From an uncultured Gemmataceae bacterium (GTDB lineage Bacteria; Planctomycetota; Planctomycetia; Gemmatales; Gemmataceae): a DNA stretch of 64,000 bases. A program made the position numbers and the translations under genes. The notes below the pieces were generated by a model. It was not told where the DNA came from. It did not search any database and saw only the letters and a list, made by a program, of their open reading frames with translations. Of this stretch, positions 3,147 through 31,303 are shown piece after piece. The stretch's first letter is position 1, and each line of letters begins with the position of its first letter. The stretch lies in contig CAVVPN010000012.1 of assembly GCA_963750165.1 (NCBI GenBank), positions 544,001-608,000 of the forward strand, in the 5' to 3' direction.

Positions 3147-3157
3147 AAACAGAGAGA

Positions 3158-3244: not shown

Positions 3245-3251
3245 CTCACAA

Positions 3252-3350: not shown

Positions 3351-3356
3351 AAGGAT

Positions 3357-9918: not shown

Positions 9919-10815
9919 ATGGTCGGTTTCACTCTCCCGCGGAAGCGCCAGGGCTTTACGCTGATCGAATTGTTGGTGGTGATCGCGATTATCGCCATCC
10001 TGATCGGGCTGCTCCTGCCCGCCGTGCAAAAGGTCCGCGAGGCCGCCGCCCGCACGCAGTGCCAGAACAACCTCAAGCAGATCGGCGTCGGCATGCACAA
10101 CTATCACAACGTCTACAAGAAGTTGCCGCAGGGCTGGGCCGTCAGCCCGATCAACGCCCCCAGTCCGGGTTGGGGCTGGGGCTCCATCATCCTGCCCTTC
10201 ATCGAACAGGAGAACCTGTACAACCTGCTGGGGGTGGACCCCACCGGCAACACGGCCATGCCGGCGGCCGCCGCCAACGTCGCCCTCACCACGTCGCTGT
10301 CCGTGTACCTCTGTCCGTCAGACCCCGCCGGCCAGCAGCAGGTCAACAACGCGCTGAACAGTTATGGCTTCAGCAACTACGTGTGCAACCGCGAGGTGCT
10401 CGGCCCGAACTCGTCCACGCAACCGGCGAACCTGGCCGTGCAGAACATCCGCGACGGCTCCAGCAACACCCTGTTGATCGGCGAACGCAACGGTACGAAC
10501 AACATCGCCGCCGTCTGGCCGGGCCACGCCCCTCAGACCACGGCGAGCTTCGAGGGCCGCCCCGGCTCGGGCATCAACGTCCTGAACCCCGGCGGCCCGA
10601 CCGGCACGGGCAACGCCCAGCGCCTGGAATACTCCAGCATGCACAGCGGCGGCGTCAACGTCCTGTTCGCCGACGGCTCGATCCATTTCATGCCGAACAG
10701 CACCCCGGCGGACCCGAGCGACGTCTGGACGAACTTCCCGGCGAATTTCAGCAATTTCACGCTGCAAAACCTGACGCACCCGAACGACGGCTACCCCGTC
10801 TACGTGGACTTTTGA
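9919..10815 (+). CDS. DUF1559 prepilin-type N-terminal cleavage / H-X9-DG protein
   Basis: [61 protein letters not shown]. Confidence 0.95.
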   Translation: MVGFTLPRKRQGFTLIELLVVIAIIAILIGLLLPAVQKVREAAARTQCQNNLKQIGVGMHNYHNVYKKLPQGWAVSPINAPSPGWGWGSIILPFIEQENLYNLLGVDPTGNTAMPAAAANVALTTSLSVYLCPSDPAGQQQVNNALNSYGFSNYVCNREVLGPNSSTQPANLAVQNIRDGSSNTLLIGERNGTNNIAAVWPGHAPQTTASFEGRPGSGINVLNPGGPTGTGNAQRLEYSSMHSGGVNVLFADGSIHFMPNSTPADPSDVWTNFPANFSNFTLQNLTHPNDGYPVYVDF

Positions 10816-10864
10816 CCCCACGGCCCCCGGGTGCGGCGGCGCACGCCCATCCGGGGCCCGCTCG

Positions 10865-11329
10865 ATGATCGCGAGGCACGGCTTTATGCATTGGACCCGA
10901 TTTTGGCGGCCCGGGGCGCTGGCCCTGGGGCTGGCGTTCGCCCTGGGTTTGTTGGCCGGCTGTGGCGGCGCGGATGGCGACCGGATTCCCGTGCAAGGCA
11001 CCGTCACCTTCGACGGCCAGCCGGTGGACGGCGGTTCCATCGCGTTCCTGCCCGAGAACAGTGATGCGAAGGCCGTCAAGGTGGGTGGCCCGATTGAGAA
11101 CGGCAAGTATGAGTTGAAGGGTGCAAAGGCCCCCGCCCCGGGCAAGCACCGCGTCGAGATTTTCTGGCACAAGAAGACCGGCAAGCAGATCGTGTCGCCC
11201 AACGACCCGCCCAACAAGGTGGACGAGACAAAGCAGGTCATCCCGGCGCAGTACAACACGAAAACCACCCTGACCGCGAACGTGGAGCCCGGGCACACCA
11301 CCTTCGATTTCGACCTCAAAAAGAAGTAA
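10865..11329 (+). CDS. Small lipoprotein partner of DUF1559 (carboxypeptidase-regulatory-like Ig fold)
   Basis: Lipobox LLAGC; VQGTVTFDGQPV..G.I.F.P; IPAQYN..TTL; start may be 10886. Confidence 0.85.
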   Translation: MIARHGFMHWTRFWRPGALALGLAFALGLLAGCGGADGDRIPVQGTVTFDGQPVDGGSIAFLPENSDAKAVKVGGPIENGKYELKGAKAPAPGKHRVEIFWHKKTGKQIVSPNDPPNKVDETKQVIPAQYNTKTTLTANVEPGHTTFDFDLKKK

Positions 11330-11416: not shown

Positions 11417-12103
11417 TCACCCGGCGGCAATCGCCAGCTGCCCCTGCTTGCGAGACCAGCGGCGGCGCAGCACCACGCCAGCACCGAGGCCCGCCGCGAG
11501 CAGGCTGCCCAGCAGCAGCGTGTCCGGCTCGGGCACGGCGCTGGTGGTGGTGATGGTCGCGCTGGAGTTGGCGATCATGCTGTCCAGCACCGTGTGGTCG
11601 CCCAGCACGTTGTTGTCGAATCCCGAGTGCGCCTCCGCCGTCAGCGTCAGCGTCGAGCCCGCCGACACCCCGGTGAAGGTGAACGTTCCCAGCAGCACCG
11701 CCCCCGCGGTCGTGCCGGTCGTCGGCGCGAACACCGACGCGCTGAACACCTGCTGCTCGCTCAGGCTGGCCGTGCCCATCGGGTCTGGCTGGATCACCAC
11801 GCTCGTCTGGGCCGTGTCGAACGCCGAGTTCGGCGTGATCGCCGCCTGGTTCGCCACCGTCGCCACCGTCGGGTCGTAGCTCAGGGCCACGCCGCCCGCC
11901 GACAGCCCGACGGATGTCAGTCCCGTGCTGCCGTTCGTCTGCGCCAGGTAGACCTGGACGTTCACCGTCGCGCCTTGCGCGACCGTGAAACTGTTTGTGA
12001 ACGTGCTGGTGTTGGGATCGTAGAACGTGAAGGCGTAGTCGGCGGCGGCACGGCCTGGCAGGAGGGCCAGCACCGCGGCCACGATTGCGGAGCGAATGCG
12101 CAT
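11417..12103 (-). CDS. PEP-CTERM sorting-domain protein with a single cohesin-like domain
   Basis: Signal peptide MRIRSAIVAAVLALLPGRAAA; C-terminal AVPEP + TM + RRRWSRK; body VAQGATVNVQVYL..GGVALSYDPTVATV..VLLGTFTFTG resembles cohesin; GAGGA SD. Confidence 0.85.
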   Translation of the reverse strand: MRIRSAIVAAVLALLPGRAAADYAFTFYDPNTSTFTNSFTVAQGATVNVQVYLAQTNGSTGLTSVGLSAGGVALSYDPTVATVANQAAITPNSAFDTAQTSVVIQPDPMGTASLSEQQVFSASVFAPTTGTTAGAVLLGTFTFTGVSAGSTLTLTAEAHSGFDNNVLGDHTVLDSMIANSSATITTTSAVPEPDTLLLGSLLAAGLGAGVVLRRRWSRKQGQLAIAAG

Positions 12104-12197
12104 CGGAGGTGTCCTCAGAGAGTAATGGCGTATCCTGGTCAAGGAACCCGCCCCGGGACACTAACGCCCGGGGCGGAGCTCACGAAGCACGCGCAGC

Positions 12198-15100
12198 TCA
12201 CGCGGGCATCTGCGTGAACAGGCGGTTAATCAGCTGGGTCTGCTCAAGCGTGTTGCCCACGTCGATGTTGCCGTCCTCGTTGTAGTCCAGATACCACTGG
12301 TACGAGTTCAGCGTCGCCGCCGCCCCCGTCGGGTTGGTTACCGCCGTCAGGCCGCTCGTCGGCGCCATGTACGTGAACGTGTTGCCGTTCACCGACAGGA
12401 TCACGAACGAGCCGTTGTACCCCGCCGGCAGACCCACGATATTCACGATCTCGCCCATCAGGAAACCACTCGGCCCGTTGGTCGTGATCGTCACCGTGTT
12501 GTTCGACTCGCTCGCCGCCAGGATCCCCGCCGTCATCCCACTGGTTTCCTGGGTCACGCCGTTCACCGTGCGGAAGTTCGTCGTGTCCACACCATCCACC
12601 TGCCGCCGCCCCTCCGTGTCGCCGAACAGCCGCCAGAACTCGTCCACCTGGTTGACACCGTTGCCGTTGAGGTTGCCGGTCCCGCTTGTCGTGCTGCCGC
12701 TCATGCCGTTTTTGGCACCGTCCAGCAGCACCGCACTATTGCTGGCGGCGCTGATGTCGGCCACCTTCGTGTTCAGGAAGTAGTTGCCGTCCACCAGCCC
12801 GACCGTCAGCGTGTTGCCGAACTGGTCCAGGTACGGCGTGATGAAGTTGAACGTGTGCGTCGCGTCGGCGTTGAAGGTGACGAACAGTTGCGTCGCCCCG
12901 CTGTCCGGCACCGGGCCGCTGGCCCCCTCCGTGGTCGCCCCGGTGCCCGGGTCGCTGACGTTGATGCTCAGCGGGTTGCCCGACGCATCCTTGAGCACGA
13001 AGTCGCTCGCCAGATCGACGATGTTCACCGGCGTGCTGAACGTCAGCGTCAGCTCCGCCACCTGCGAGTGCTGGTTGGAACTGTCGTCGTTCACCGCCAC
13101 CGTCAACTGCGGCGCCCAGTCGTTCGGCCCGCCGATGCTGTTCAGCGGCTGCCCCGCGAACGCCGTGCTGTTCGGGCTCCCCAGGAAGAACATGCCGCTG
13201 CTCGGCGTGCCGGTGACCACGCTGCCCAGCCAGTCGGCGCCGCTGCTGCCGGTGTTCTGGGCGATGCGGCCCACGTAGTTCGCCACCCAGGTGCCGGTGT
13301 TCACCACGTTCGAGCCCGCCAGCGTCGTGCCGGTCGCCCCCGTCGGCTTGAAGGTGATCGCCGCGTACGCGTGGCTGGTGCTGGCGCTGTCCAGGATGCC
13401 CACCGAGTCCAGCACGTTCCAGCCGTTGTACGCCGATGTCTGGTTGCTCGGGTTGCCAGTGTTGGCCGGATCAATGTTCGTCGTCGTCGTCGGCGCCGTC
13501 GGCGTCTGAATGAGCAGGAAGCTCTCCGCCCCCGTCAGGAGGATGTCGGTGGCCAGCTGGCCGCTCGGCCGGGTGCTGCCGGTATGCACGCCAGTGACCG
13601 TGCCGAACTTGCTCGTGTTACCGCTGCCGAACCCGGCCCCCGTACCGCTGTTGTCCAGCTGGTTGCCACCGGCCACCTCGTAACCGCCGCTGCTGTACTT
13701 CTCGCTCTTCTGCAGCAGCGCCAGGTAGCCGTTGCTGCCGGTCGTGAAACCGCTCAGGTTGAAGATGTCGGCCAGCACACCCGCAGCCGGCGTGCTGCCC
13801 GAGACCCCGTTGATGCCCGTCAGGTACACGCCCGTCGGGATGGTGTAGCTGGGCACCGTCGAGAAGACCTCAATGTACTGGCTGGGGTTGGTCGTGTTGC
13901 CCTTGAGCGTGTCGATCTCACTCAGGAACAGGCCGACCACGGTGATGCTCGTGGAGCGGACATCCGTCAGCGAACCGCCGTAGCCGCTGTTGCCGTTGTC
14001 GGTGGTGCTCACCGTCAGCGTCGCCGTGCCGAAGAAGCCGGGGCCCGGCGTGTACACCAGGCTGCTGAGCGTGGTCGTGATGTCGCTCGGGCTGCCGGTG
14101 ATGACCAGCGGCTGCGTGCCGCCGCCGCTGACCATGGCCTGGCCGCTGGCCGCTGCCGTCAGCGTGCCCACCGGGCCGCTCGAGGTGCCCGCCGGCGAAC
14201 CGGTCAGGGTCAGCGTCGTCGTCTCGGGGGAGCCGCTCGCGGTGTAGTCGCTGTCAGTCACGATGATGGCGTCGCCAGTGGCCGACGAGAAGGCCACGGT
14301 GTTGGGCGTAACCGTCTGCAGGCCGGCGTGGGCCGCCGGGTTGAACAGCGCCTCCGGGATGACCGCCGGCACCGGCAGGCTGGCGTAGGGCGGCTGGTTG
14401 GGCTGCACCACGATGTTGAGGTTGCCATCCACGCCGGTCACGAACACGGGGTTGCTGCCGGTGCCCTGCGGCGCCGGCGTCAGCGTGATGGCGCCGTTGT
14501 CGTCGTAAACCGCGGTCGTGGTCGTGGTGTTGTTGCTGTCGGTGTAGGACTGCAGGATGTACAGCGGGATGCTACCGCTGGCCGAGCCATTGACCGCGAA
14601 GGTGATCTGCAGCACTGCCCCGACCTGGCCGCCGCTGACCGCCGCCTCGTTGGCGGTGAACTCGCTGGTGCGCAGCACGCCGTTGGTGTTATCCACGTTG
14701 GTGGTCAGGCTGAAGCCCGTCAGCAGGCTGCCGACGGTGACGTTGGTGACCTGCAGCAGCAGCGGGTTGAACTTGATGGCGTTATCGACGGCGGCGATGT
14801 CGAAGGGGACCGGGCCGTTGCTGAAGTTGATGGGGATGGTAACGGTGCCGCCGGCCGTGGCCGTGGTGTTGGCCGGGAAGCCCTCGGTGCCGCTGTGGCC
14901 GACGACGCTGAAGTAGTTGTCCACGTTGGTGACGAAGGGGCTGACGGTGCTGCCGCTCAGGGGCAGGGTGCTGGGGTTCTGCGGCGCCGGCCCGAGCGTC
15001 AGGGCGCTGGTGGCGTTGTAGACGGCGGTGGTGGTGCTGGTGTTGTTGGCGTCGGTGTAGCTGGCGGCCAGCTTGAGCGGCGAGGGGCCGAGTGGGGCGC

Positions 15101-18100
15101 TGCTGTTGACGGTGAAGTCGAGGAGCAGGACATCGCCGTCGGTGGGGTTGGGAGCCTGCGCCGGGTTGGCGGTGAACTCGCTGACGCGGATGACGCCGTG
15201 GACGGCATCCACGTTGGTGGTGACGCTGAAGCCCGGCAGCAGTGAGCCGGCGCGGATGTTGGAGACCGTGAATTTGCTGGGGTCGTACTCGATGACCGAG
15301 TCGATGGCATCGATCTCGGTGCTGGGATCGGCACCGGAGACGTTGAAGCGTTCCTGAACGGTAACGGTCTGGCCGTCGCCACCGGTGGCGGCGGCGAGGT
15401 AGAGCCGGGGGTCGGGGCCGAGCGGGCCGGTGATGGTGAAGCCGGTGGGCGGTTGGGGAATGACGCTGGGGAAGGAGCCGACGGCGGCCTTATCGACATC
15501 GGCGGCGTCGAGGCCGGTGACGCCCAGGGTGCCACTGGCGGTGACGCTGCCGATGATCCAGGGATCGAGATCCTTGAAGACGCTGAAGCCGGTGCCCTGA
15601 CCGACGCTGACCCGGTCGATGAGGGAGGCGTCCAGGCCGGTGTAGGTGTGGGAGCCATCGATATCGCCCTGGTAGGCGTTGACATCGATGGCGTCATCGC
15701 CCTGGGCCGCGGTGCCGTTGAGGACGACGCTCTGAGTGGCGAGCAGGGCCTTGTCGGTGTAGGGGGCGTTCTGGGGCACGGTGGCGGTGAGGGTGAGCAG
15801 GGTGCCGGTGCCGCCGCTGGGGTTCCAGTGGCCGCCGCCGCTGCCGCCGATGATGGTGAAGGTGATCAGCATGTGGTGGGCGTCGATGCTGGTGAAGCTG
15901 ATCGGGTTGAGGACGAGGTTGCCGTTGGTGGCGGCGTCGGTCGAGAGGGTGGCCGCCGTCACGCTGAGGAGGGTCGGGTCATAGGTCAGGGTGAAGGAGA
16001 GGGACTGGACGGCGGAGGTGATGCCGCTCAGGGTGATGGGCAGTCCGGTGCTGGAGTTGGGGATGTTGACGGTCTGGCCGGGCCCGCGGGCGACGAAAGC
16101 GGCGGTGACCACCGGGGTGACGAGCGGGCTGGCGACGGTGAGGGGCTGGCTGTAATTGCTGGCGAGGGTGGCCCCGCCGACGGCCTTGACGGAGTTGGTG
16201 ACGGCGACGGTGTAGTTGCCGGGAGCCAGTTCGCCCGCGGTGGCGACGAAAGTGGCGACGTTGGGATGGGTGGCGTCGATGAGCAGCGAGCCCTTGACGC
16301 TGCCGCCCGGGCCGGTCAGGGTGATGTTCGGCGCCACGGCGGTGGCGCCGGGGCTGTAGAACAGCTGGGTGGTGTTGGGATCGACGGGGCCGTCGAAGAC
16401 CAGCTGGACGTAGTTGCCCGCGAGAGTCGCCGAGTCTACCTGGAAGGTGGCGGTGACCACCTGGCTGACCGTGCCCGAGCCGCTGGCGGCGAAGTTCCCC
16501 TGCTGGGCGAAGTTGGCGGAGATGGGGTGCGTGCCGACGGTCAGCACGGCGGCGCTGCTGAGGGTGATGGTGGCGTTGCCGCTGGCGTCCAGGGTGCCGG
16601 TGGCGCCGCTGATGGCGACGCCGTTGTCCGACAGGGACACCGTGTCGCCGGCGACCGAGCCGCTGGCGGGCGCGACGTGGACCAGGAACGACACCGGCTG
16701 CACCGTGCTGCCGAAGTTGAGCGACGGGTTCGGGCCGTTGTCGGTGATGGTCGTGGTCGTCGAGACGGTTGAGCCGGTTGAGACGGTCAGCACAACGTCA
16801 TGGCCGCTGGTGCCGCCCGCGTAAGAGATGCTGAACGTCGTGCCGCCAACCGTGATGGTGCTTCCCTGGGAGAAGGTACCGGTGATGGCCGACCCGCCAT
16901 TATTGACAAGGATGTCAAAAGTGGTGCCTGGGGCTGGTGTAAAACCGCTGCCGAGCGAAAGGTCGAGGGAAGAACCCGCCAAGTTGACGGCGCCGGTGGC
17001 CGTCACCTGGTCGTAGCCGGTTCCCGCGGTCGTCCCGTTCAGCAGCACATTGAGCGTGCCACCCGAGCCGAACGACAGGTTGCCGACGGTCAAGGAGCCG
17101 GTGCTCGCGGCCGTCGTATCGCCGGCAATCAAGGCGCCGGTGACGGCGACCGGGGCTGAGATCGTGCCCGTGCCTCCCAGAGTTGCGGCGGCCGCGACGG
17201 AGGTGGAGCTGGTAATGCTGCCGTCCACCAGGAGCCGACCCGCGCTGACCGTGGTTGCCCCGGTGTAGGTGTCAACCCCGGTCAGAATCGTGGTGCCGGT
17301 GCCTGCCTGAATAACTTGCCCCGGAGAGCCGCCGAAGACCTGGGGACCGAAGTTCACGGTGGCCCCGGCGACAAATTCACCAACGCCGCCGTTGACGCCC
17401 GCCCCGTAGTAATTGTTGGGGCCGACAACCGTGGTGCTCGGGGTGTAACCGAGCGGGAAGAGGTTGAACGTGTCCGAACTGACGGGGTAATGACCCGTCG
17501 ATGACACGGGCGTGTTGATGACGGTGTACGTAAAGCTCGGACCGGTGGCCGAATAGGTGTAGTGGGTCACCTGCAAGATCGGGGCCACGGTCCAGGTCGC
17601 CTGGTTGCCCAGGGAATCTGTAAAGGAGGTGTTGGTGACCACCAGGACGTCGCCGACGGCGTAACCGCCGCCGTTGACGATGGCCGCGTCCGGTGACAGG
17701 TTGCTGCTCGCATTGTCCGGCACGGAGGTTTGCAGCGCCTGCCAGGACAGGATGGCCCCGCTGCCGCCCGACCCGTCCACCGGGGCGACGTAGAACAGCG
17801 TGGCCGGGTTCCATTTCGTGTAGCTGCCCGCGGTCGTGACGTTGACGGCCAGGATCGCGCCCGAGCCATCGACCGCGGTCACGGTGAGGGTGGCCGCCGT
17901 TCCGACCGGGGTGATCCCGGCCGGCGCGCTCAAGGTCAACACGTCGCCGATGTGGTAGCCGCTGCCGCCGGTTCCGCTCACGAGCGTGGCGGTGCCGATG
18001 CCGGTCGCGAAGTTGATCGGATACGATGTGGCACTGGGGTTAAGGGGATCGTTCATGGTCAGATTGAACAGCGGGTTCCCGGTGCCGCTGCCGCCGGTGA

Positions 18101-21100
18101 CCGGGCACGGGACGGTGGGCAGAACGCTATACCAGTTCGCGGAATCCGCCGCGTCGCCCTGGAAGCCGTTGTTGGTCGCATCGGACGCGACAAAGCCCGT
18201 CACGACGCCACCGCTCGTCGTCACCGTACCGAGCAGCGGAGCGCCACCCGCCGCCGTCACCCCGCCCAGGGCCACCACGGTCGCGCCGTTGGTGTAACCC
18301 GATCCGCCCGCGGCGATCGTGTTGGGGTCGATCGCGCTGGTCCATTCATTCCAGCTGTCGAAGGACGAGCCGGTGGCCGTCACCGTGGCGTTCTGCGACA
18401 AGGTGATGGAACTGGCGTTGATGGCGGTGATGACGGCGCCCGCCGGGATGCCCGGGCCGTCGACGGCGTAGCCGACGGCGTAGGGGGTGCCGGCGGGGGA
18501 GGTGTCCACCACGTTCAGGATCATGTTGCTACCGGCAGTGGTATCGCCCGTGAGGGGGGCGTACAGTTCGTGCTGCGAGGTCATTTCGTAGGCCGTCGTC
18601 ACCTCGTGGCCCAGGCCGCTGCCGTACCCGCTTGGGGCACCGTTCTGGTCCGACGTGTCGAGCGCCGTCGGCTGGGTCAAGGCCGGACTGAGCATGTTCG
18701 ACTCGATCGGCAGTTGGGCGCCCGTCGAGGTGGTGAGCGTCTGATTGAGCTGGGCGGTCATCGACTCACTGGAGACAGTCAGGGAGGCGCCGGTCAGTGT
18801 GGCCAACTGGTAAGTGCCGGCTCCCCCCGTGGTGCCCGTCAACTGCGCCGTGATCGCCGTGCCGATCGGGATGCCCGTGCCGCTAATCGTGTCGCCGACG
18901 ACGATGGGAGATCCCGTCGGGCTGGACACGGTGAGCACATTGGCCGAGATGCTGCCCGTGATCGACGTGGTCGTCTGGGCCGAAAATGTATCGGTGATCG
19001 TTGAGGATTGGCTCAAAGTGTACGTGCCGATGCCGCCGGTGGGGCCGGTGAGCTGCCCCGTGATGGTCCCTAACGAGTCGCCGCTGCTGTCGAACACCGT
19101 TTGTCCGACGGTCAGATTGAAGCCGTAAGCGTACGGGGCGTCGGTGCCGCTGACGAACGAGTCCACCGTCAGCGTCGTTCCCGAGACGGAACCCGAGAAG
19201 ATCGGGTCAAGCAAAGTCTGGTCGCCGGTTTCGACGGGGGAATAGGGTTGGTACGTGCCGGGCATGTACACTGCGACGCCGGTGATGGCGCCGCTGCCGG
19301 TGCCGCCGTTCACCTGCGTAATGATGAGTTGCGCCGGCATCACGTTCGGGTTGGCATAATTTTCAGGGTTGGGGGTGAGGCTGCCATTAATGCCGATCGA
19401 AAAGGTTCCCAGACCCTGGGCGACCGTCAGAATCTTGCCGACGTCGGCCTGGGTGTAAGGAACCGCGCCAGGCTCGGTGGCCGCGTTGCCGCCGCCGGAC
19501 ACGATCTGGACGCCGCCAATGCCGCTGGCTTGCAGATTGGCCAGGGCGGGGAGCACCAGGCTGGTTCCCGACGCGGTCGGGGCGATGCTCAGGGTGAACG
19601 TGTTGTGAACGGTATCGACCGAGGTGATGAAGGTTCCCGTCGGGCTGGTTCCAACGCCGGGGCCGCCGTTGCCATTGACATCGGCAGGGAATGTGGCGAT
19701 CCCGGTCCCCTCGACGACCTGGCCGATCGAGATGCCGTAACCCGCGATCGTGCCGGAGCTCAGCGTGACCTTGTTGCTGCCGGCCGTGTACGTGACCGGG
19801 ATCGTGGGAGCCGTGGGGGATGTGTTCTGGGTCGATTCATTGGTCGTCAGGTAGAACAGGGCGCCGGAGCCGACGGTGTTTCCGACGGCCTGGACGGCAA
19901 TCGGATCGAACGGGGCGAGGACCGGGATTTGTCCAGGACGGTCGCTGCCAGTGGCACCCCAGTGATATTGGTACAGTTGGCCGGCCGAGTTCACATAGTC
20001 ATGCATGTTGATCGAGGAGTCGGCCACCTGCACTCCGTTGACGGACTGCACCATGTCGTGTCCCGGATTGGCGCCGGTCGTTACCGGCGCCGAGCCGCCG
20101 GGATTGCCGCCGGTCAAGTTCTGGATGACGTTCGGCACGGTCATCGTGTCGGTGCGGTCGAAGACGAGGTTGCCGCTGCCGATGGTGACGACACCCGTTC
20201 CGAGGGTGCCCGTGGTGCCGCCGTTGCCGACCTGCAGGACGCCGCTGTAGACGGACGTCGGACCGGCATAGGTGTTGGCCGCCGTGAGGATCGTTGTCCC
20301 GCTGCCGCTGTTGGCCAGGCCGCCGGTCTCGGTAAATGTCAACGCGGCACCGGTTGCGACCGCCGTGGCGGCCGTGGTGAGCGTGATGCTGGTGGCGCTG
20401 GCGATCGTGGATATTTTATCCCCTGCCGGGATGCCGGCGCCGGCGACCACCATGCCCGGGGCCAGCAGTGCGGTGCTGGCGAGGCCGTTGACCGTGGTAC
20501 TGCTCGTGGGCCCCCCCGTCAACCTGAAAGTCAATGTGCTCGTTCTGGTGCTCGTGGCGGCCGTGGTGAGCGTGATGCTGGTGCCGCTGGCGATCGTGGC
20601 AATCGTATCCCCCGCCGGGATACCAGTGCCACTGACCAACATGCCCGTGGCCAGCTGTGCGGTGCTGGCGAGGCCGCTGACCGTGGTGCTATGATTCGTC
20701 AGGCTCCCGGACAACGAGATTGCGGTGTTCCCGGTCAACGAGACGGTGCCGATGCCGCTGCCGCTGAAGTCGGTCCCCTGGGTCACCGTGTTGCTGCGGT
20801 CGATGGCGAAAACGCCGGGGGTGGTGAGGATGCCGAAAGCGCCGGCGCTGTTATCGACGATCGTGCTGCTTGTGCTCAGCGATCCGGTGGTGCCGCCGTT
20901 GCCCAGCTGCAGCGTGCCGCCGCCGATCAACGTCGTGCCAGTGTACGTGTTGGCGTTCGTCAGGACCAGGGTCCCGGCGCCCAGTTTGGTGAGCCCGCCC
21001 GTGCCCTGCGTCAGCGCGTCGCTGATCGTGAAGGTGTTGTTCGGGTCGTTGATATCGAAGCCGGCCGTCGTGTTGGGGGTAATCGAATACGGGTGTGAGC

Positions 21101-24100
21101 CGATGAACCCGCCGCTAGCGGACATCAGGCTGGTACCGGTGATCTGCAGCGTGCCGCCGTTGAAGACGATCGAACTGGGGGTGCCGCTAGTGGCACCGAG
21201 GTTTGCATCCGCTCCGACGCTCAGTTCGCCGGCCGTGATCGTGTCGGCGCCGGTGTTCGCGTTGGTCCCCGAGAGGATCAAATTTGACGTGCCGTTCTCG
21301 GTAACGCCCGTCACGCCGGCGGAGAGGTTGGAGCTGATGATGGTCGTGCCGATGCCCGTACCATTGTTGGTGATGGCGCCGCTGATGTTGAGCGCGCCCG
21401 TGAAGATGAGGTTGCCGTTGCCGGCGACGTTGATCGTCAGGTTATTGTTGCCGGTCACGTTGCCGCTGAAGGTCGCGGTGGCGTCGGTCGGCCGACCGAT
21501 GACGACGGCCTGGGTGGTGCCGATGGTCAGGCCGCCCACGCCGGAGAGATTGGTATTGGTGGCCAGTTGGATGGGGTTCGAGAATTGCAGGAAGCTGGTG
21601 GAGATGAGCAAGGCGGCGGGGACGCTGCCGGTGGTATTGCCCAGCGTGACCACATTGGTGTTGGCGCCGAGTGCTCCCGAGACCTGAGCGGCATCGACGG
21701 TGCCGCCCTGGATGTTCAGGCCGCTCGTGAAGGTGTTGGGGCCGGCAAGCACGAGCGGTGAGGCGGTGAGGGACCCGGTATTTTGGTAGACGCCGGTCAC
21801 GTGCGTTGTGATGATGTTGCTGATCGTGGTGAGGCCGCTGCTGGTGCCGATGTTGGTGATCGTACCCGTATTGCTGATGTTGTTCGGGCTTTGCGGCGGC
21901 CCGGCGTGAACGTCGCTGGGGGGAGGGAAGCCGATCCAGATCGACCCGGCGGAGGAAGAGTTGTTGAGGACCAGGTTGCCCGCCCCCGTGATCGACCCAC
22001 TGGCAACGATACGGGCCGTCGAACTTGTGCCCGTGGCGGCGATGGTCAAAGCATTGCCGTTCAGGGTGATCGCGCCGCTGAAGTAGGCGTCGTCAGAGCC
22101 GCCGTCGTTGCCGAGCGTCAGCGCGCCGGCGCTCCCCACATTGATCGGGTTGGCGACCGCAAACGTGCCCGCTTCCAAGCTGGCCGAAGTCGTGGTGGCG
22201 GTGCCGAGTTGAATCGCGGTGTTCGTGTTCCCAGCCGCTCCGGTGGTGCCCGAGTTGCTGACGCCCGCGATGAAGGTGCCGGCCTGGATGGTCAGGCCGC
22301 CGGTGAACGAGTTCGCGCCCGAGAGGGTCAGCTTGCCAGTCCCCAGTTTCTCCACGGCCAAACTTCCACCATTGCTGGGGTCGGCAATCACCGAGGCATA
22401 GGTGGCCGTGTTCGTGCCCGTCACGTCCAGGCCAAGGGTCGCTGTGCCGGCGCCATCGCTGAACGTCGCATGACTGAGGAGAGTGTCAACGTCGGCGGAG
22501 GTAAATTGCCCGGTGCCGCCGAATTGAACGGCCAGGGTGGCGCCATCGTTGACGGTGATTCTGCCTGAACCTGAAGTGTTGTATCCGGGCAGTGAAGCTG
22601 TCCTGGTCGCTTCCAGTGTGCCGTTTATCACATTGGTTGGACCGGTGTAGGTGTTGGTCCCGGTCAGGATCGTGGTGCCGGTGCCCAACTGAATCACGGA
22701 CCCCGGAGTGCCGCCGAAGACCTGAGGACCGAAGTTCACGGTGGCCCCGGCGGCGAATTCCGCGACGCCGCCGTTGACGCCCGCCCCGTTATACGTGTAG
22801 GGGCCGACGATGGTGGTGGCCGGGGTGTAACCCAGCGGGAAGAGGTTGAACGTGTCCGAACTGAGGGGGAAATCACCCGTCGATGACACGGGCGTGTTGA
22901 TGAGGTTGTACGTGAAGCTCGAACCGCTGGCCGAGTAGGTGTAATGGGTCACCTGCAAGATGGGCGCCACGGTCCAGGTCGCCTGGTTCCCCTGGGAGTC
23001 CGTCCAGGAAGAAGTGCTGCTCACGACGAGGACGTCGCCGACGGCGTACCCGCCGCCATTGACGACGGCCGCGTCAGGCGAAAGGGCGCTGCTCGCATTG
23101 TCCGGCACGGAGGTTTGCAGCGCCTGCCAGGACAGGATGGCCCCGCTGCCGCCCGACCCGTCCACCGGGGCGACGTAGAACAGCGTGGCCGGGTTCCATT
23201 TCGTGTAGCTGCCCGCGGTCTGGACGTTGACGGCCAGGATCGCGCCCGAGCCATCGACCGCGGTCACGGTGAGGGTGGCCGCCGTTCCGACCGGGGTGAT
23301 CCCGGCCGGCGCGCTCAAGGTCAACACGTCGCCGAGGGCGTAGCCGCTGCCGCCGTGTCCGCTCACGACCGTGGCGATGCCGATGCCGGTCGGCACGCTT
23401 TGGCTATTGGTAAGGACATCGTTCATGGTCAGATTGAACAGAGGGTTGCCGGTTCCGCTGCCGCCGGTGACGGGGCACGGCACGGTGGGCAGGACGCTAT
23501 ACCAGTTGGCGGCATCCGAGGCGTCGCCCTGGAAGCCGTTGTTGAGCGCATTGGACGCGGTAAAGCCCGTAACCACGCCACCGGTGGTCGTCACCGTACC
23601 GAGCAGCGGAGTGCCGGCCGCCGCCGTCACGCCGCCCAGGGCCACCACGGTCGCGCCGTTGGTGTAACCCGAGCCGCCCACGGCGATCGTGTTGGGGTCA
23701 ATCGCGCTCGTCCATTCATTCCAACTGTCGAAGGACGAGCCGGTGGCCGTAACCGTGGCGGCTTGCGACAGGGTGATCGAACTGCCACTGACGGCCGTGA
23801 TGACGGCGCCCGCCGGGATGCCCGGGCCATCGACGGCGAAGCCGACCGCGAAGGGGGTCATCGCGACGGAGGTGTCCACCGCGTTATTGATGACTTTGCT
23901 ACCGGCAGTGGTATCGCCCGTGAAGGGGGCGTAATACTCGTGGGCCGACGTCATTTCGTAGGCCGTCGTCACTTCATGACCGAGTGCGCTTCCGTAACCG
24001 TCCGGGCCGCCGCTCTGGTCCGAATTATCGACCGCCGTGGGCTGGGTCAGCGCCGGACTGATCATGTTCGACTCGATCGGAAGCTGAGCGCCCGTCGAGG

Positions 24101-27100
24101 TGGTCAGCGTCTGATTGAACTGAGCGGTCATCGACTCGTCCGCGACCGTCAGTGGCGAAACACCGGCCAGCGTGGCCAACTGATAAGTGCCGGCCCCACC
24201 CGGGGTGCCCGATAGCTGAGCCGTGATGGCCGTGCCGACCGTGACGCCCGGAGCGTAGAACACGTCGCCGACGACGAGAGGAGATCCTGCCAGCGATCCG
24301 GCGTCCACGGTGAGCACGTTTGCCGAGATGCTGCCCTTGAAGCCCGTAATCGTCTGGGCGTAAAGCTGTTGGTCGGGGATCGAATAGTTCATCGTCTCGC
24401 TGGCGATGGTTAGGGTCGCACTGATGGGGAAGCTGAAGGTGCCGTCGCCGTTGTCGGTTCCCGAATCGGTGATGGTGGTTCCAGCAGGGATCCCCGTACC
24501 CGTGATCGTGTCGCCAGGCGCAAGGTTGTTCGCATCCGCGGCGGAAACGGTGAGCGTGTTGCCGCTGATCGAACCGGTGAACGACGGCAACGCCGTGCTC
24601 AAGGTGTACGTACCGGTGCCGTCAGGGTTGACGCTATTCAGTGCCGTGATGGTCGCGTATGCGGGGATGTCCGTCCCAGGCAGGCCGACAATGCCGTTCG
24701 TATTGGTTTGCACCACCTGTCCGACGGCGAGAGGTCTGGCGGCGGCAGACACCGCGTCGGTGCCGGTGATGAACGAACTCACCGTGAGCGTGTTGCCCGA
24801 GACGGAACCGGTGAAGACCTGGGCGGCGTAGGTCTGGTCGCCGGGAAGCACCGGCGAGTAGGCCTGGTACGTGCCGGGCGAGAGCAGTTCGACGCCGGTG
24901 ATCTGACCGTTTGCCACCGACGTAATCATGAGCTGCGCCGGCGTCACGTTGGGGTTGGCGTAGTTCTCGGAGTTGGGGGTGAGGCTGCCGGCAGGGGTGA
25001 GGCCGTCGTCGTCGTAAGGATTGGTGCCAATCGAGAAGGTCCCCTGGCCCTGGGCGACCGTCAGGATCTTGCCGACATCGGCCGAGGTGTAATTAACCGC
25101 GCCGGGCGCACCGGACGCGCTGCCGCCGCCGGACACGATCTGCACACCGCCGATGCCGTTGGCCTGCAAGTTGGCCAGGGCGGGCAGTAACAGGCTCGTT
25201 CCCGACGCGCTCGGGGCGATGTTCAGGGTGAACGTATTGTGAACGGTATCGACCGAGGTGATGAAGGTTCCCGTCGGATTGGCTCCAGCGCCGGGGCCGC
25301 CGCCGCCGTTGGCGTCCGCGGGGACCGTCAAGATGCCAGCCCCTTCGACGACCTGGCCGATGGAGATGCCGTAACCCGCTATCGTGCCCGAGGTAAGGGT
25401 GACCGTGTTGCTGCCGGCCGTGTAACTGACCGGGAGCGTGGCGGCCGTGGGGGACGTGAACTGGGTCGATTCGTTCGTGGTCAGGTAGAACAGGGCACCG
25501 GAGCCAACGGTGTTGCCGACGGCCTGGACGGCAATCGGATTGAACGGGGCGATAACCGGAATTTGTCCCGGACGGTCGCTGCCCGTGGCGCCCCAGTGGT
25601 AGGCGTAGACCTGGCCGTTGGCGTCCGCCACGTCATGCATGTTGATCGCCGTGTCGGCCACCTGCTTTCCGGTGGTGGGGTCGGTCTGCACCATGTCATG
25701 GCCGGGATTGGCCACGGTCGTCGCCGGCGCCGAGCCGCCGGCCGTGGCGCCGGTCACATTCTGGATGACGTTCGACACAGTCAGTAGGTCGGAGCGGTCG
25801 AAGACCAGATTGCCGTTGCCCATGTTGACGACACCCGTTCCGAAGCTGCCGCTGGTTCCGCCGTTGCCCACCTGCAGGACGCCGTTGTAGACGGACGTCG
25901 GTCCGGAATAGGTGTTGTTCGCCGTGAGGATCGTCGTGCCGCTGCCGCTGTTCGCCAGGCCGCCGGTCTCGGTGAACGTCAACGAGACCCCCGTTCCGTC
26001 CGCCGTGGCGGGCGCGAGGAGCTCGAAGGAGGTGGCGTCATCGATCGAGGCGATCACGTCCCCGTCCGGGATGCCGGGACCGGAGACCGGCATGCCCGTG
26101 GCCAGCAGTGTGGTATCGACGTTGCTGACCGTGGTGCTGCCGTTCGCGGTGTCGCCCGCCAACGAGAGGGTGCCGAAGCCGCTGCTGCTGAAATCGGTCC
26201 CCTGGGTGACCGTGTTGCTGCGGTTGATGACGAACGTGCTGGGGATGGTGAGATTGGGGGTGCCGCCGTTGAAGTCGTAAACGTAGGTGCTGTTATCGAC
26301 GATGGTGCTGCTCGGGCTGAGCGATCCGGTGGTGCCGTCGTTGCCGAGCTGCAACACGCCGGCGTTGATCAGCGTGGGGCGCGTGTACGTGTTGGCGTTC
26401 GTCAGAACCAGGGTCCCTTCGCCAAGCTTCTCGAGTCCAACATTGCCCGTCAATGCATCGCTGATGGTAAAGGTGTTGGTCGAGTCGTTGATATCGAAGC
26501 CGGCCGTCGCGCCCGAATTGATCGAGTACGGGTGCGAGCCGATGTTCCCACCGCTTGCGGAAGTCACGTTGGCGCCGGTGATTTGCAGGGCGCCGCCGCC
26601 GAAGACGATCGAGCTGGGAGTGCCGGTGGTGCTGCCGAGGTTCGCGTCCGTTCCGACGCTCAGTTCGCCGGCCGTGATGGTGTCGGCGCCGGTGTTCGCG
26701 TTGGTCCCGGAGAGGACCAGGTTCGACGTGCCGTTCTCGGTGATGCCCGTCACGGTGGCGGGGAGGTTGGAGCTGATGATGGCCTCGCCACCGCCCGTAC
26801 CGTCGTTGGCGATCGTACCGCTGATATTCAGCGGACCCGAGAAGATGACGTTGCCGTTGCCGCCGACGGCGATCGTGAGGTCGTTGCTGCCGCTTACGGT
26901 GCCAGTGAAAGTCGCGGTGGCGTCTGTCGGCCGACCAATTGCGACGTCCTGGGTGCTGCCGATGGTCAGACCGCCGACGCCGGAGAGATTGGCATTGCTG
27001 GCCAGATGGATATTGTTCGTGACGGTCAAGAAACTAGTGGAGATCAACAGGGCGGCGGGTACATTGCCCGTGGTACTCCCCAGTGTGATCGTTCCGGTGC

Positions 27101-28529
27101 TGAGTGCCGCCGAGGTCTGAGCGGCATCGACGGTGCCGCCCAGGACGATCAGGCCAGAATGGGTGCCGTCGGTCAGGAACGTGTTAGTGCCGGCAAGCAC
27201 GAGAGGCGAGCCGTTGGCGGTGGCGTTTTCGTAGACGCCGGTTACGTTCGTGAGGATGTTGTTGCTGATGGTGGCGAGGCCGGTACTGGTGCCAACATTG
27301 GTGATCGTACCCGTATTGTTGATGTTGTTTGGTGCGGGGGGCGGCCCGGAGTGGTTGCCGGGGGGCGGGAAGCCAAGCAAGATCGTCCCGGCGGGGGTCA
27401 TCCCGCTGGCGGAAGCCATGGAGGAGTTGTTGAGGACCAGGTTGCCGGTCCCCGTGATCGACCCACTAACAATGACACCGGGCGAGTTGCCGCTCGTGTC
27501 GTCAGCCGTGCCCGTCGCGGAGATGGTCAAAGCATCGCCGTGCAAGATGACCGATCCGCTGAAGTAGGCGTCGTCAGAGCCGCCGTCGTTGCCGAGCGTC
27601 AGCGTGCCGTTGCTCCCCACATTGATCGGGTTGGCGACCGTGAACGTGCCCGCCTCCAAGCTGGCCGAAGTCGTGGTGGCGGTGCCGAGTTGAATCGCGG
27701 TGTTCGTGTTCCCAGCCGCTCCGGTGGTGCCCGAGGTGTCGCCGCCCGCGATGAAGGTGCCGGCCTGGATGGTCAGGCCGCCGGTGAAGGAGTTGGCGCC
27801 CGAAAGGGTCAGCGTCCCGCCGTCGAGATCCACGGCCGTTGCGCTGTTGGCTGATCCGTCCTGGATGACACCGCTGAAGGAACCGCCGGCCGTGACGGTC
27901 AACATGGCGGTCGTAGAGCTAGCAGTATTTTCCACGGTGCCGGCGCCGTTGAGGCTGGCAATGGAGACATTGTTCCCGGCAAGGTCCAGTGTGGCCCCGG
28001 AGGCGACGGTGACGGGCTCCCCGGCAGGCACAGCACCGGCACTGCCGACTTGCAGGGTGCCCCCCTGAACGAACAGGCCGCCGTTGAAGGAGTTTGTGCC
28101 CGTGATAGTGGCGGTGGCCGCGTCGGTGATCGAAATCGAAGCGGTCGCGGGGGCGGCTACGCTTGTCAACGCTGCGCCGGTCGTCTGGAAGCTAAGCTGC
28201 GTAATGCTTGCCCCACTGCCGCTCGGGCCGGTGGCCGTTGTTGTGCCCACACCAGTCCAGCCCGTTGGCACGCTCGAAAAGGTGTTGTTGTCGGTGATCG
28301 TGTAGTGGTTACTGGCGCCAGTGGTGTAGGCGACCGTGATGGTGGGGGCGCCGGCGTCCGCCAGCAGCAGGGCATTGCCAGTGAGGCTGAGCGCTCCGGT
28401 CAACACTTCGCGAACTTCCAGCTGCTCTGCCCAGGGCCGCGCATTGCGGAACGGACGGCGCTTGGCCTTGTCCGATTTGCTGCGGGTCCACAACTTGAGC
28501 AGGTTCCTGGTCCACGAGATATTCGACAT
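12198..28529 (-). CDS. Giant (5443 aa) secreted mosaic protein: LEPRxLL-type leader, autotransporter-associated beta-strand repeats, internal duplication, Ig-like, cohesin-like x3, dockerin-like x2, cadherin-like and lamin-tail-like modules
   Basis: Uninterrupted ORF; AAGGAAGG SD before ATG 28529; basic leader + EQLEVREVL; many GLTKLGAGTLVLTNANTYTG.T.I.GGTLQ.G repeats; YDP/FNP-type cohesin motifs; GDIDG and DYNEDGNID Ca-loops; no C-terminal beta-barrel. Confidence 0.92.
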   Translation of the reverse strand: MSNISWTRNLLKLWTRSKSDKAKRRPFRNARPWAEQLEVREVLTGALSLTGNALLLADAGAPTITVAYTTGASNHYTITDNNTFSSVPTGWTGVGTTTATGPSGSGASITQLSFQTTGAALTSVAAPATASISITDAATATITGTNSFNGGLFVQGGTLQVGSAGAVPAGEPVTVASGATLDLAGNNVSIASLNGAGTVENTASSTTAMLTVTAGGSFSGVIQDGSANSATAVDLDGGTLTLSGANSFTGGLTIQAGTFIAGGDTSGTTGAAGNTNTAIQLGTATTTSASLEAGTFTVANPINVGSNGTLTLGNDGGSDDAYFSGSVILHGDALTISATGTADDTSGNSPGVIVSGSITGTGNLVLNNSSMASASGMTPAGTILLGFPPPGNHSGPPPAPNNINNTGTITNVGTSTGLATISNNILTNVTGVYENATANGSPLVLAGTNTFLTDGTHSGLIVLGGTVDAAQTSAALSTGTITLGSTTGNVPAALLISTSFLTVTNNIHLASNANLSGVGGLTIGSTQDVAIGRPTDATATFTGTVSGSNDLTIAVGGNGNVIFSGPLNISGTIANDGTGGGEAIISSNLPATVTGITENGTSNLVLSGTNANTGADTITAGELSVGTDANLGSTTGTPSSIVFGGGALQITGANVTSASGGNIGSHPYSINSGATAGFDINDSTNTFTISDALTGNVGLEKLGEGTLVLTNANTYTRPTLINAGVLQLGNDGTTGSLSPSSTIVDNSTYVYDFNGGTPNLTIPSTFVINRSNTVTQGTDFSSSGFGTLSLAGDTANGSTTVSNVDTTLLATGMPVSGPGIPDGDVIASIDDATSFELLAPATADGTGVSLTFTETGGLANSGSGTTILTANNTYSGPTSVYNGVLQVGNGGTSGSFGTGVVNMGNGNLVFDRSDLLTVSNVIQNVTGATAGGSAPATTVANPGHDMVQTDPTTGKQVADTAINMHDVADANGQVYAYHWGATGSDRPGQIPVIAPFNPIAVQAVGNTVGSGALFYLTTNESTQFTSPTAATLPVSYTAGSNTVTLTSGTIAGYGISIGQVVEGAGILTVPADANGGGGPGAGANPTGTFITSVDTVHNTFTLNIAPSASGTSLLLPALANLQANGIGGVQIVSGGGSASGAPGAVNYTSADVGKILTVAQGQGTFSIGTNPYDDDGLTPAGSLTPNSENYANPNVTPAQLMITSVANGQITGVELLSPGTYQAYSPVLPGDQTYAAQVFTGSVSGNTLTVSSFITGTDAVSAAARPLAVGQVVQTNTNGIVGLPGTDIPAYATITALNSVNPDGTGTYTLSTALPSFTGSISGNTLTVSAADANNLAPGDTITGTGIPAGTTITDSGTDNGDGTFSFPISATLTIASETMNYSIPDQQLYAQTITGFKGSISANVLTVDAGSLAGSPLVVGDVFYAPGVTVGTAITAQLSGTPGGAGTYQLATLAGVSPLTVADESMTAQFNQTLTTSTGAQLPIESNMISPALTQPTAVDNSDQSGGPDGYGSALGHEVTTAYEMTSAHEYYAPFTGDTTAGSKVINNAVDTSVAMTPFAVGFAVDGPGIPAGAVITAVSGSSITLSQAATVTATGSSFDSWNEWTSAIDPNTIAVGGSGYTNGATVVALGGVTAAAGTPLLGTVTTTGGVVTGFTASNALNNGFQGDASDAANWYSVLPTVPCPVTGGSGTGNPLFNLTMNDVLTNSQSVPTGIGIATVVSGHGGSGYALGDVLTLSAPAGITPVGTAATLTVTAVDGSGAILAVNVQTAGSYTKWNPATLFYVAPVDGSGGSGAILSWQALQTSVPDNASSALSPDAAVVNGGGYAVGDVLVVSSTSSWTDSQGNQATWTVAPILQVTHYTYSASGSSFTYNLINTPVSSTGDFPLSSDTFNLFPLGYTPATTIVGPYTYNGAGVNGGVAEFAAGATVNFGPQVFGGTPGSVIQLGTGTTILTGTNTYTGPTNVINGTLEATRTASLPGYNTSGSGRITVNDGATLAVQFGGTGQFTSADVDTLLSHATFSDGAGTATLGLDVTGTNTATYASVIADPSNGGSLAVEKLGTGKLTLSGANSFTGGLTIQAGTFIAGVSNSGTTGAAGNTNTAIQLGTATTTSASLEAGTFAVANPINVGSAGALTLGNDGGSDDAYFSGAITLNGNALTIAATGTSSTARIVASGSITGAGNLVLNNSSSAGSIWIGFPPPSDVHAGPPQSPNNISNTGTITNIGTSSGLTTISNIITTHVTGVYQNTGSLTASPLVLAGPNTFTSGLNIQGGTVDAAQVSGALGANTNVVTLGNTTGSVPAALLISTSFLQFSNPIQLATNTNLSGVGGLTIGTTQAVVIGRPTDATATFSGNVTGNNNLTINVAGNGNLIFTGALNISGAITNNGTGIGTTIISSNLSAGVTGVTENGTSNLILSGTNANTGADTITAGELSVGADANLGATSGTPSSIVFNGGTLQITGTSLMSASGGFIGSHPYSITPNTTAGFDINDPNNTFTISDALTQGTGGLTKLGAGTLVLTNANTYTGTTLIGGGTLQLGNGGTTGSLSTSSTIVDNSAGAFGILTTPGVFAIDRSNTVTQGTDFSGSGIGTVSLTGNTAISLSGSLTNHSTTVSGLASTAQLATGMLVSGTGIPAGDTIATIASGTSITLTTAATSTRTSTLTFRLTGGPTSSTTVNGLASTALLAPGMVVAGAGIPAGDKISTIASATSITLTTAATAVATGAALTFTETGGLANSGSGTTILTAANTYAGPTSVYSGVLQVGNGGTTGTLGTGVVTIGSGNLVFDRTDTMTVPNVIQNLTGGNPGGSAPVTTGANPGHDMVQSVNGVQVADSSINMHDYVNSAGQLYQYHWGATGSDRPGQIPVLAPFDPIAVQAVGNTVGSGALFYLTTNESTQNTSPTAPTIPVTYTAGSNKVTLSSGTIAGYGISIGQVVEGTGIATFPADVNGNGGPGVGTSPTGTFITSVDTVHNTFTLSIAPTASGTSLVLPALANLQASGIGGVQIVSGGGNAATEPGAVPYTQADVGKILTVAQGLGTFSIGINGSLTPNPENYANPNVMPAQLIITQVNGGTGSGAITGVAVYMPGTYQPYSPVETGDQTLLDPIFSGSVSGTTLTVDSFVSGTDAPYAYGFNLTVGQTVFDSSGDSLGTITGQLTGPTGGIGTYTLSQSSTITDTFSAQTTTSITGSISANVLTVSSPTGSPIVVGDTISGTGIPIGTAITAQLTGTTGGAGTYQLATLTGASLTVSSESMTAQLNQTLTTSTGAQLPIESNMLSPALTQPTALDTSDQNGAPSGYGSGLGHEVTTAYEMTSQHELYAPLTGDTTAGSNMILNVVDTSPAGTPYAVGYAVDGPGIPAGAVITAINASSITLSQNATVTATGSSFDSWNEWTSAIDPNTIAAGGSGYTNGATVVALGGVTAAGGAPLLGTVTTSGGVVTGFVASDATNNGFQGDAADSANWYSVLPTVPCPVTGGSGTGNPLFNLTMNDPLNPSATSYPINFATGIGTATLVSGTGGSGYHIGDVLTLSAPAGITPVGTAATLTVTAVDGSGAILAVNVTTAGSYTKWNPATLFYVAPVDGSGGSGAILSWQALQTSVPDNASSNLSPDAAIVNGGGYAVGDVLVVTNTSFTDSLGNQATWTVAPILQVTHYTYSATGPSFTYTVINTPVSSTGHYPVSSDTFNLFPLGYTPSTTVVGPNNYYGAGVNGGVGEFVAGATVNFGPQVFGGSPGQVIQAGTGTTILTGVDTYTGATTVSAGRLLVDGSITSSTSVAAAATLGGTGTISAPVAVTGALIAGDTTAASTGSLTVGNLSFGSGGTLNVLLNGTTAGTGYDQVTATGAVNLAGSSLDLSLGSGFTPAPGTTFDILVNNGGSAITGTFSQGSTITVGGTTFSISYAGGTSGHDVVLTVSTGSTVSTTTTITDNGPNPSLNFGSTVQPVSFLVHVAPASGSVAGDTVSLSDNGVAISGATGTLDASGNATITLSSAAVLTVGTHPISANFAQQGNFAASGSGTVSQVVTATFQVDSATLAGNYVQLVFDGPVDPNTTQLFYSPGATAVAPNITLTGPGGSVKGSLLIDATHPNVATFVATAGELAPGNYTVAVTNSVKAVGGATLASNYSQPLTVASPLVTPVVTAAFVARGPGQTVNIPNSSTGLPITLSGITSAVQSLSFTLTYDPTLLSVTAATLSTDAATNGNLVLNPISFTSIDAHHMLITFTIIGGSGGGHWNPSGGTGTLLTLTATVPQNAPYTDKALLATQSVVLNGTAAQGDDAIDVNAYQGDIDGSHTYTGLDASLIDRVSVGQGTGFSVFKDLDPWIIGSVTASGTLGVTGLDAADVDKAAVGSFPSVIPQPPTGFTITGPLGPDPRLYLAAATGGDGQTVTVQERFNVSGADPSTEIDAIDSVIEYDPSKFTVSNIRAGSLLPGFSVTTNVDAVHGVIRVSEFTANPAQAPNPTDGDVLLLDFTVNSSAPLGPSPLKLAASYTDANNTSTTTAVYNATSALTLGPAPQNPSTLPLSGSTVSPFVTNVDNYFSVVGHSGTEGFPANTTATAGGTVTIPINFSNGPVPFDIAAVDNAIKFNPLLLQVTNVTVGSLLTGFSLTTNVDNTNGVLRTSEFTANEAAVSGGQVGAVLQITFAVNGSASGSIPLYILQSYTDSNNTTTTTAVYDDNGAITLTPAPQGTGSNPVFVTGVDGNLNIVVQPNQPPYASLPVPAVIPEALFNPAAHAGLQTVTPNTVAFSSATGDAIIVTDSDYTASGSPETTTLTLTGSPAGTSSGPVGTLTAAASGQAMVSGGGTQPLVITGSPSDITTTLSSLVYTPGPGFFGTATLTVSTTDNGNSGYGGSLTDVRSTSITVVGLFLSEIDTLKGNTTNPSQYIEVFSTVPSYTIPTGVYLTGINGVSGSTPAAGVLADIFNLSGFTTGSNGYLALLQKSEKYSSGGYEVAGGNQLDNSGTGAGFGSGNTSKFGTVTGVHTGSTRPSGQLATDILLTGAESFLLIQTPTAPTTTTNIDPANTGNPSNQTSAYNGWNVLDSVGILDSASTSHAYAAITFKPTGATGTTLAGSNVVNTGTWVANYVGRIAQNTGSSGADWLGSVVTGTPSSGMFFLGSPNSTAFAGQPLNSIGGPNDWAPQLTVAVNDDSSNQHSQVAELTLTFSTPVNIVDLASDFVLKDASGNPLSINVSDPGTGATTEGASGPVPDSGATQLFVTFNADATHTFNFITPYLDQFGNTLTVGLVDGNYFLNTKVADISAASNSAVLLDGAKNGMSGSTTSGTGNLNGNGVNQVDEFWRLFGDTEGRRQVDGVDTTNFRTVNGVTQETSGMTAGILAASESNNTVTITTNGPSGFLMGEIVNIVGLPAGYNGSFVILSVNGNTFTYMAPTSGLTAVTNPTGAAATLNSYQWYLDYNEDGNIDVGNTLEQTQLINRLFTQMPA
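17255..27815 (-). repeat. Intragenic tandem duplication, two ~5.1-5.2 kb copies (~27815-22640 and ~22340-17255)
   Basis: Both begin LTLSGANSFTGGLTIQAGTFIAG and end GATVNFGPQVFGG.PG.VIQ.GTGTTILTG; long near-identical DNA, e.g. ~23090-23325 vs ~17705-17945. Confidence 0.93.
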
Positions 28530-31227: not shown

Positions 31228-31303
31228 CTCACGAACCCAGGTAAGGGATCTCAGTCCGGTATCTGTTTGGCCAAATTGCTGGCCCATCCGGTAATGGCGA
31301 GAG

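Follow-up and report, generated by a model that had tools for sequence, protein, structure and literature searches.

An anchoring scaffoldin other than the SLH type is described, in the available text of PMC11557425, as a cohesin module combined with a cell-envelope targeting motif. ScaE of Ruminococcus flavefaciens carries a single cohesin and a C-terminal sorting tag, and the partners in its system bind through a dyad of X module and dockerin (PMC12484212, available part). In the complex cellulosomes of Acetivibrio and Clostridium, polyvalent adaptors combine several cohesins with a dockerin (PMC11557425, same text). For Planctomycetes, a non-cellulosomal cohesin-dockerin machine, the 'Planctosome' of freshwater Phycisphaerae, was proposed in the available part of PMC6461901; the anchor suggested there, likewise hypothetical, has 2210 aa and bears a lamin-tail domain, and the main text of that paper mentions neither 'PEP-CTERM' nor 'exosortase'. 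In another diderm, Chlorobium chlorochromatii, the neighbouring genes Cag_2037 and Cag_2038 carry complementary cohesin and dockerin modules and are co-expressed, and their interaction was modelled; the cohesin there forms the N-terminus of an RTX-type cargo, the dockerin lies on the large partner, and a small PEP-CTERM anchor is not described in the part of the preprint that was available (bioRxiv 10.64898/2026.03.19.712371). In the searchable literature, from which subscription journals were mostly missing and supplements were absent, no paper combining a cohesin with PEP-CTERM was found, and cohesin, dockerin and exosortase occurred together only in unconnected passages on ANME archaea (PMC5244752, available part).

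The locus described here lies in a window (the whole 64,000-nt stretch that was analysed, C12:544001-608000) of a genome of 9.6 Mb and 93% completeness, referred to below as G000. A giant gene is followed there by a small one, and the small protein resembles ScaE in joining a single predicted cohesin-fold domain to a C-terminal sorting tag. The tail of the giant has the layout of an X-module-dockerin dyad, through which binding is putative. Unlike in the ScaE system, the host is a diderm, PEP-CTERM/exosortase stands in place of LPXTG/sortase, the cohesin sequence falls outside PF00963, and no glycoside hydrolase was found as cargo in the window's giant. The giant itself fits the polyvalent adaptor of the complex cellulosomes; unlike in those, no SLH or CBM3 was detected, the passenger is a PATR-rich region of 3900 aa, and the dockerin is split by an insert. 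Substrates of the PEP-CTERM/exosortase system are reportedly built of a signal peptide, PEP, a TM helix and a basic cluster (Haft et al.). The tail of the small protein shares this anatomy and exosortase genes are present in the same genome, but, unlike the usual substrates, the small protein is predicted to have a fold for protein docking and is accompanied by a conserved partner gene. The pair is real and conserved, and apparently undescribed in the searchable literature. What would be new is an exosortase-tagged form of cohesin-dockerin anchoring, the anchoring principle itself being known.

Gene arrangement and features of the giant protein

The giant gene (12198..28529, minus strand) encoded a secreted-type protein of 5443 aa rich in T, G, A and S when read from the ATG at 28529, which was preceded by AAGGAAGGA; the alternative TTG start given by the ORF finder extended it to 5471 aa. 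The small gene (11417..12103, minus strand) encoded 228 aa, comprising a signal peptide, a cohesin-fold domain and a PEP-CTERM tail. This anatomy agreed with that given in an earlier note on the same DNA, and the same-strand gap that the note reported was exactly 94 nt (12104..12197, minus strand). A G+C-rich hairpin (z -2.1) was present in the spacer and GAGGA preceded the start codon of the small gene; no terminator-like site or U-run was found in the 94 nt. With such a spacer, co-transcription of the two genes is plausible. Two genes lay upstream of the giant in the same orientation, one resembling HTTM/vitamin K-dependent gamma-carboxylase (29737-31287) and one for an amidohydrolase (31304-33007).

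The N-terminus of the giant was basic and was followed at residues 35-43 by EQLEVREVL (28401..28427, minus strand), which we take, by eye, to be LEPRxLL-like. The leaders of four sister giants read LEQLEGREC, VEPLEDRVV, LECLEARTL and LEQLETREV. No model of Pfam or NCBIfam matched the first 60-100 aa of the giant, so that the LEPRxLL-type leader of the earlier note stands as a likeness by eye and not as a model match. PATR repeats occupied the N-terminal 3900 aa, in which residues ~239-1966 were repeated at ~2066-3760 (17252..27813, minus strand; 77-86% DNA identity in a DNA search). No catalytic Pfam domain was found in this giant. The highest 19-residue hydropathy value, 1.63, lay within internal beta-rich segments, and neither a C-terminal TM helix or sorting tag nor a barrel family was found by hydropathy and family scans, in agreement with the earlier view of an anchorless protein. 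A type V autotransporter was considered on account of the PATR repeats and rejected, as the giant had no barrel and its C-terminus was an X-dockerin.

Three Pfam cohesins overlooked by the earlier note were found at residues 4140-4710 (PF00963, all above cut-off, minus strand), at 15675..16112 (E 4.9e-9), 14895..15416 (E 1.8e-13) and 14400..14897 (E 8.9e-11). They surrounded a degenerate dockerin-like segment (15414..15677, minus strand) with a GDIDG loop and a degenerate second loop; this segment had no Pfam match, and paralogs 34% identical to it matched Dockerin_1 below the cut-off. In the whole genome, 41 PF00963 matches were located in large ORFs, 38 of them above the cut-off. By its domain layout, the giant itself looks like a three-cohesin adaptor.

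X-dockerin tail of the giant

The last 305 residues of the giant comprised an Ig-like module and a dockerin divided by an 82-aa insert. The Ig-like X module (12627..13115, minus strand) lay directly before the dockerin and carried QHS in place of the family motif QRS. In the first loop-helix half of the dockerin (12552..12629, minus strand), loop position 5 was R where the family has D; the second half (12201..12305, minus strand) read DYNEDGNID, with a 3-residue insertion in its loop before E12, and F was changed to L in helix 2. The family consensus was GDxDGDGxVDxxD ... DFDGDGxIDxxD, a duplicated motif of Ca loop and helix. As some Ca ligands depart from this consensus, the activity of the window copy is less certain than that of the family. 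Pfam Dockerin_1 (PF00404) was matched at E<=1 by 26 of the 31 tail family members (best 1e-10), including relatives lacking the insert, and the best PDB sequence matches of the family were dockerins; the window's own split dockerin did not match PF00404.

In the tail model, pLDDT was 77-95 in the dockerin halves and 45-65 in the insert. The modelled halves came together and could be superposed on 2ozn_B (Z 6.7, rmsd 1.8 over 54), the modest Z being due to the small size of a dockerin module, and on 2y3n_D (rmsd 1.9 over 49). The tail model was also matched to the XDoc of CipA, 5g5d_B (Z 5.0, rmsd 2.2 over 62), and the modelled X module to the Ig-like domain of SbsC (Z 8.3, rmsd 2.5 over 93). 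The split tail is predicted to fold as a dockerin, and because both the Ig-like module and the dockerin halves match solved folds, the conserved C-terminal module can be read as an X-dockerin dyad. The dockerin-like module first noticed here was thus borne out by the PF00404 matches of the tail family and by the model superposition, with the insert and the X module as additions.

The insert (12306..12551, minus strand) was E1-FCCH-like by language-model features (0.93, a lead only), and it resembled both small modules repeated in other giants and phage E1-FCCH-like clusters. At one other locus, L001, such an insert-like module was placed inside the X module instead of the dockerin.

Predicted cohesin fold of the small protein

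The small ORF ran from its ATG at 12103, after GAGGA, to 11417 and consisted of a signal-like N-terminus, a domain of ~165 aa, and VPEP followed by a hydrophobic stretch and RRRW; both the signal peptide and the PEP-TM-basic tail were judged from sequence and hydropathy. The tail with its VPEP, hydrophobic helix and RRR was located at 11456..11536 (minus strand). The window copy scored just below the PEP-CTERM cut-offs (PF07589, 18.2 vs 20.7 bits; TIGR02595, 15.3 vs 16), and 17 of 24 homologs matched PF07589 at E<=1. As for exosortase, PF09721 had six matches in the genome, two of which were pieces of one gene, giving five loci.

The cohesin assignment concerned residues 22-186 (11546..12040, minus strand) and was model-based. 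By sequence, no family member matched PF00963 at E<=1 (0/24 and 0/31), which places the domain in a cohesin-fold family outside PF00963; no cohesin turned up when the PDB was searched by sequence with the profile of the small domain, and HHalign against the Pfam cohesins of the genome gave a weak match (26%, E 7e-4). The AlphaFold2 model built from 24 sequences was a beta-sandwich with a pLDDT of 88.3, whose best Foldseek matches were cohesins (E 2.6e-7). In a VIA comparison with 48,161 chains, cohesins filled the top 18 rows (Z 10.8-14.0), with a best rmsd of 2.5 over 135, and pilin and CBM-like folds came next at Z<=10.7. The ScaE cohesin 2zf9 was among the fold matches. A nine-stranded beta-sandwich cohesin fold is predicted for the domain, and the fold on which the earlier note had staked its proposal was recovered in both structure searches. 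Read with its model, the small protein corresponds to the definition of a non-SLH anchoring scaffoldin, i.e., a cohesin module and a cell-envelope targeting motif. A complex prediction of the small domain with the split tail, folded without the X module, scored 0.01 against a mark of 0.32, with controls not folded, and so speaks neither for nor against binding.

At E<=0.001, the small-protein family comprised 1382 cluster representatives (50% identity). The best 150 of these were all stand-alone proteins of <=290 aa (median 222 aa), 132 of which had PEP within the last 75 residues. Among named records, the one closest to the small gene came from a Gemmataceae MAG, and others with the family included Pirellulaceae and Pirellulales MAGs.

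Conservation of the gene order

After repeats of the same locus were merged, 41 non-redundant loci with the small gene were obtained from other genomes or contigs; L035, which lies inside a long ORF resembling a protease, had been left out before this count. Two of the 41, at contig edges (L059 and L108), were excluded, leaving 39 that could be tested. A tail gene lay directly upstream on the same strand in 35 of the 39, a count in which related genomes are not independent, and the pairing noticed in the window is thus conserved. At the paired loci, the tail stop was 80-344 nt before the domain start. The exceptions were L006, L016 (a weak member), L047 and L050. Among the loci outside the training of profiles A2/A3, some of them close kin of training loci, a tail was upstream in 19 of 21. 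At two loci, L106 and L107, the partners carried two tandem X-dockerin modules.

None of 30 control PEP-CTERM loci from the tail-rich genomes G656 and G024, for most of which ~600-800 nt of preceding sequence was covered, had a tail upstream. In the genome of the window, a terminal dockerin preceded four of the 22 detected PEP-CTERM genes, three belonging to the small-gene family and the fourth to a second class, and none of the remaining 18. Among PEP-only matches, one of 15 had an upstream tail, and this one was a remote family member. The small PEP-CTERM genes of the second class were found behind a different dockerin type (C3:555319-556038, i.e., L165, and L093 and L095); their products appeared cohesin-like by eye, with an Atlas lead of 0.82.

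In the order survey, a tail was present in 18 of the 20 genomes with the small gene and in 53 of the 247 without it, with related genomes again not independent. Fifty-three of the 71 tail-bearing genomes had no small-family match at E<=1e-4. In the phylum-wide sample, profile A2 matched two of 400 other genomes at E<=1e-5, one of them with the pair (L036) and the other being the protease-like L035. A follow-up for an anchor partner confirmed none in G024, G025, G054, G072 or G089; a candidate of G024 (L176), flanked on either side by tail genes of the opposite strand, had no significant profile match. Intact orphan small genes with no tail beside them were present in G560 (L050; one contig, 99% complete) and G557 (L047; 98%), and neither the tail profile nor Pfam Dockerin_1 matched anywhere in these two genomes. 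Such orphan anchors may be relics, may have another ligand or may capture the proteins of other cells. Gene order of this kind indicates shared function of the neighbours rather than contact between their products.

Number of tails per putative anchor gene and cassette copies

Two genomes that were initially scored negative for the small gene were later found to contain remote members of the family. Three tandem members were located right behind one of the 63 tails of G001 (HHalign 95%, E 2.5e-8), and G656, with 33 tails, had one remote member detected, again behind a tail. Because tails outnumber anchors (33:1 and 63:3), a shared dock is suggested. In 15 chosen genomes, seven of which had been picked for the small gene, nine of 20 terminal tails were followed by a PEP-CTERM gene, eight of these being of this family. 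The two-gene system of the earlier note held in its conserved pairing, but the relation between anchor and tail looks one-to-many.

The C-terminal part of the window's giant was a cassette of 4.56 kb (residues 3923-5443; 12197..16761, minus strand) with four other copies in the genome, at C12:112703-117256, C3:2973507-2978067, C3:761444-765995 and C11:1214281-1218845, of 93-98% DNA identity. All five shared one starting point within an Ig domain and were borne by giants with unrelated N-termini, a pattern suggestive of gene conversion or of recent copying of the cassette. An assembly artefact was rejected, since the copies differ by 2-7% and their flanks differ. The small gene was present behind three of the five copies and absent behind two, and one duplication in this genome spanned both the cassette and the small gene, ending 3 nt past the small-gene stop. 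One cassette-bearing giant (C11:1199530-1218844) was in three abutting ORFs, probably through assembly frameshifts or as a decaying gene.

Other giants shared only the first cohesin-dockerin-cohesin block and had no family gene behind them, which suggests the terminal X-dockerin as the partner. As judged from gene neighbourhoods, it is the terminal X-dockerin, rather than the internal dockerin-like segment, that tracks the small gene. The block-bearing giants lacking a terminal X-dockerin were at C3:1896122-1902253, C3:2456541-2462207, C3:3104057-3116056 and C11:29599-36510, and all four ended in a tail with DEFWRRYG, resembling the DEFWRLFG that leads into the terminal dockerin.

A DUF1559 pilin-leader gene and a small lipoprotein-like gene were located just downstream of three of the five cassettes (9919-11329 in the window, C3:2971203-2972478 and C11:1218969-1220427) and at L001 (10794-13256). 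With 48 DUF1559-like ORFs in the genome, this adjacency is possibly not due to chance.

Proposed mechanism and alternative explanations

We propose, with a probability of about 0.7, that the small protein is an exosortase-sorted anchoring scaffoldin that binds the X-dockerin of the giant and of other tail-bearing exoproteins and holds them at the cell surface or within the matrix. In this scheme, the small protein would be exported by Sec and processed by exosortase, by which the anchor would become attached to the surface or the matrix, and the giant would be exported by a leader-linked route. The cohesin-fold domain of the anchor would then capture X-dockerin tails in a Ca-dependent manner. 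The giant would be cargo, and its own cohesins would possibly recruit further dockerin proteins as a second tier. The exosortase-anchored single-cohesin adaptor put forward in the earlier note is thus supported by the predicted fold and the gene order, although not as a strictly two-gene arrangement.

PEP-CTERM proteins may ultimately be attached, bound to EPS or released (PMC12188702, available text). It is accordingly conceivable, albeit unlikely, that the pair binds with no lasting tether and that the small protein, released or linked to EPS, cross-links tails in the matrix or escorts the tail during export; the gene-order and fold data would fit this equally. However, one cohesin with one sorting tail is the layout of an anchoring scaffoldin (PMC11557425, available text), and a monovalent protein is unable to cross-link unless it is fixed to something. 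The many internal cohesins of the genome, i.e., the 41 PF00963 matches, raise another explanation, in which the terminal dockerin mainly binds the cohesins of its own or other giants in a self-assembling mesh that the small protein only nucleates or that could dispense with it. The two cassette copies with no small gene behind them would agree with such a mesh, but these could be served in trans, and across lineages tail and small gene go together. Moreover, an NCBIfam scan found no cohesin family in the complete 1458-aa partner at L003, which shows only the terminal dockerin motif. We consider a mesh improbable.

The least probable explanation, in our judgement, is that the beta-sandwich of the small protein, though cohesin-like, serves another purpose, such as glycan binding or adhesion, and that the small protein is co-transcribed with surface proteins without contacting them. 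Its missing Pfam cohesin match, the pilin and CBM-like folds that come after the cohesins at Z<=10.7, and the orphan genes of G557 and G560, where no dockerin was detectable, are in line with it. Against it stands the specificity of the neighbour, which is a dockerin-ended gene, with widely differing cargo, at 35 of 39 loci and at none of the 30 control PEP-CTERM loci.

Biological significance

Beyond the anchoring scaffoldin proposed above, the X-dockerin tail may be a general surface-display tag of Planctomycetota, a broader reading that we hold tentatively and at less than even odds. Dozens of tagged exoproteins would be served by one to three genes for exosortase-sorted cohesins in each genome, giants with extra cohesins would branch the assembly, and the cassette would be copied as a unit onto new cargo. 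If true, a Gram-negative phylum would possess a surface coat of several tiers that resembles a cellulosome but is non-cellulolytic, and a large PEP-CTERM family would have a defined job.

For the anchoring scaffoldin itself, scaffoldin-type anchoring would be extended to diderm bacteria, and the two proteins would be a native Gram-negative cohesin-dockerin display pair. The retention of anchorless leader-bearing giants on the cell, which the earlier note hoped to explain, would be accounted for in some planctomycete giants; many giants of this genome have no terminal dockerin, and the explanation does not extend to them. Lastly, a PEP-CTERM family of 1382 clusters would gain a concrete role, in a system whose substrates mostly lack a known function.
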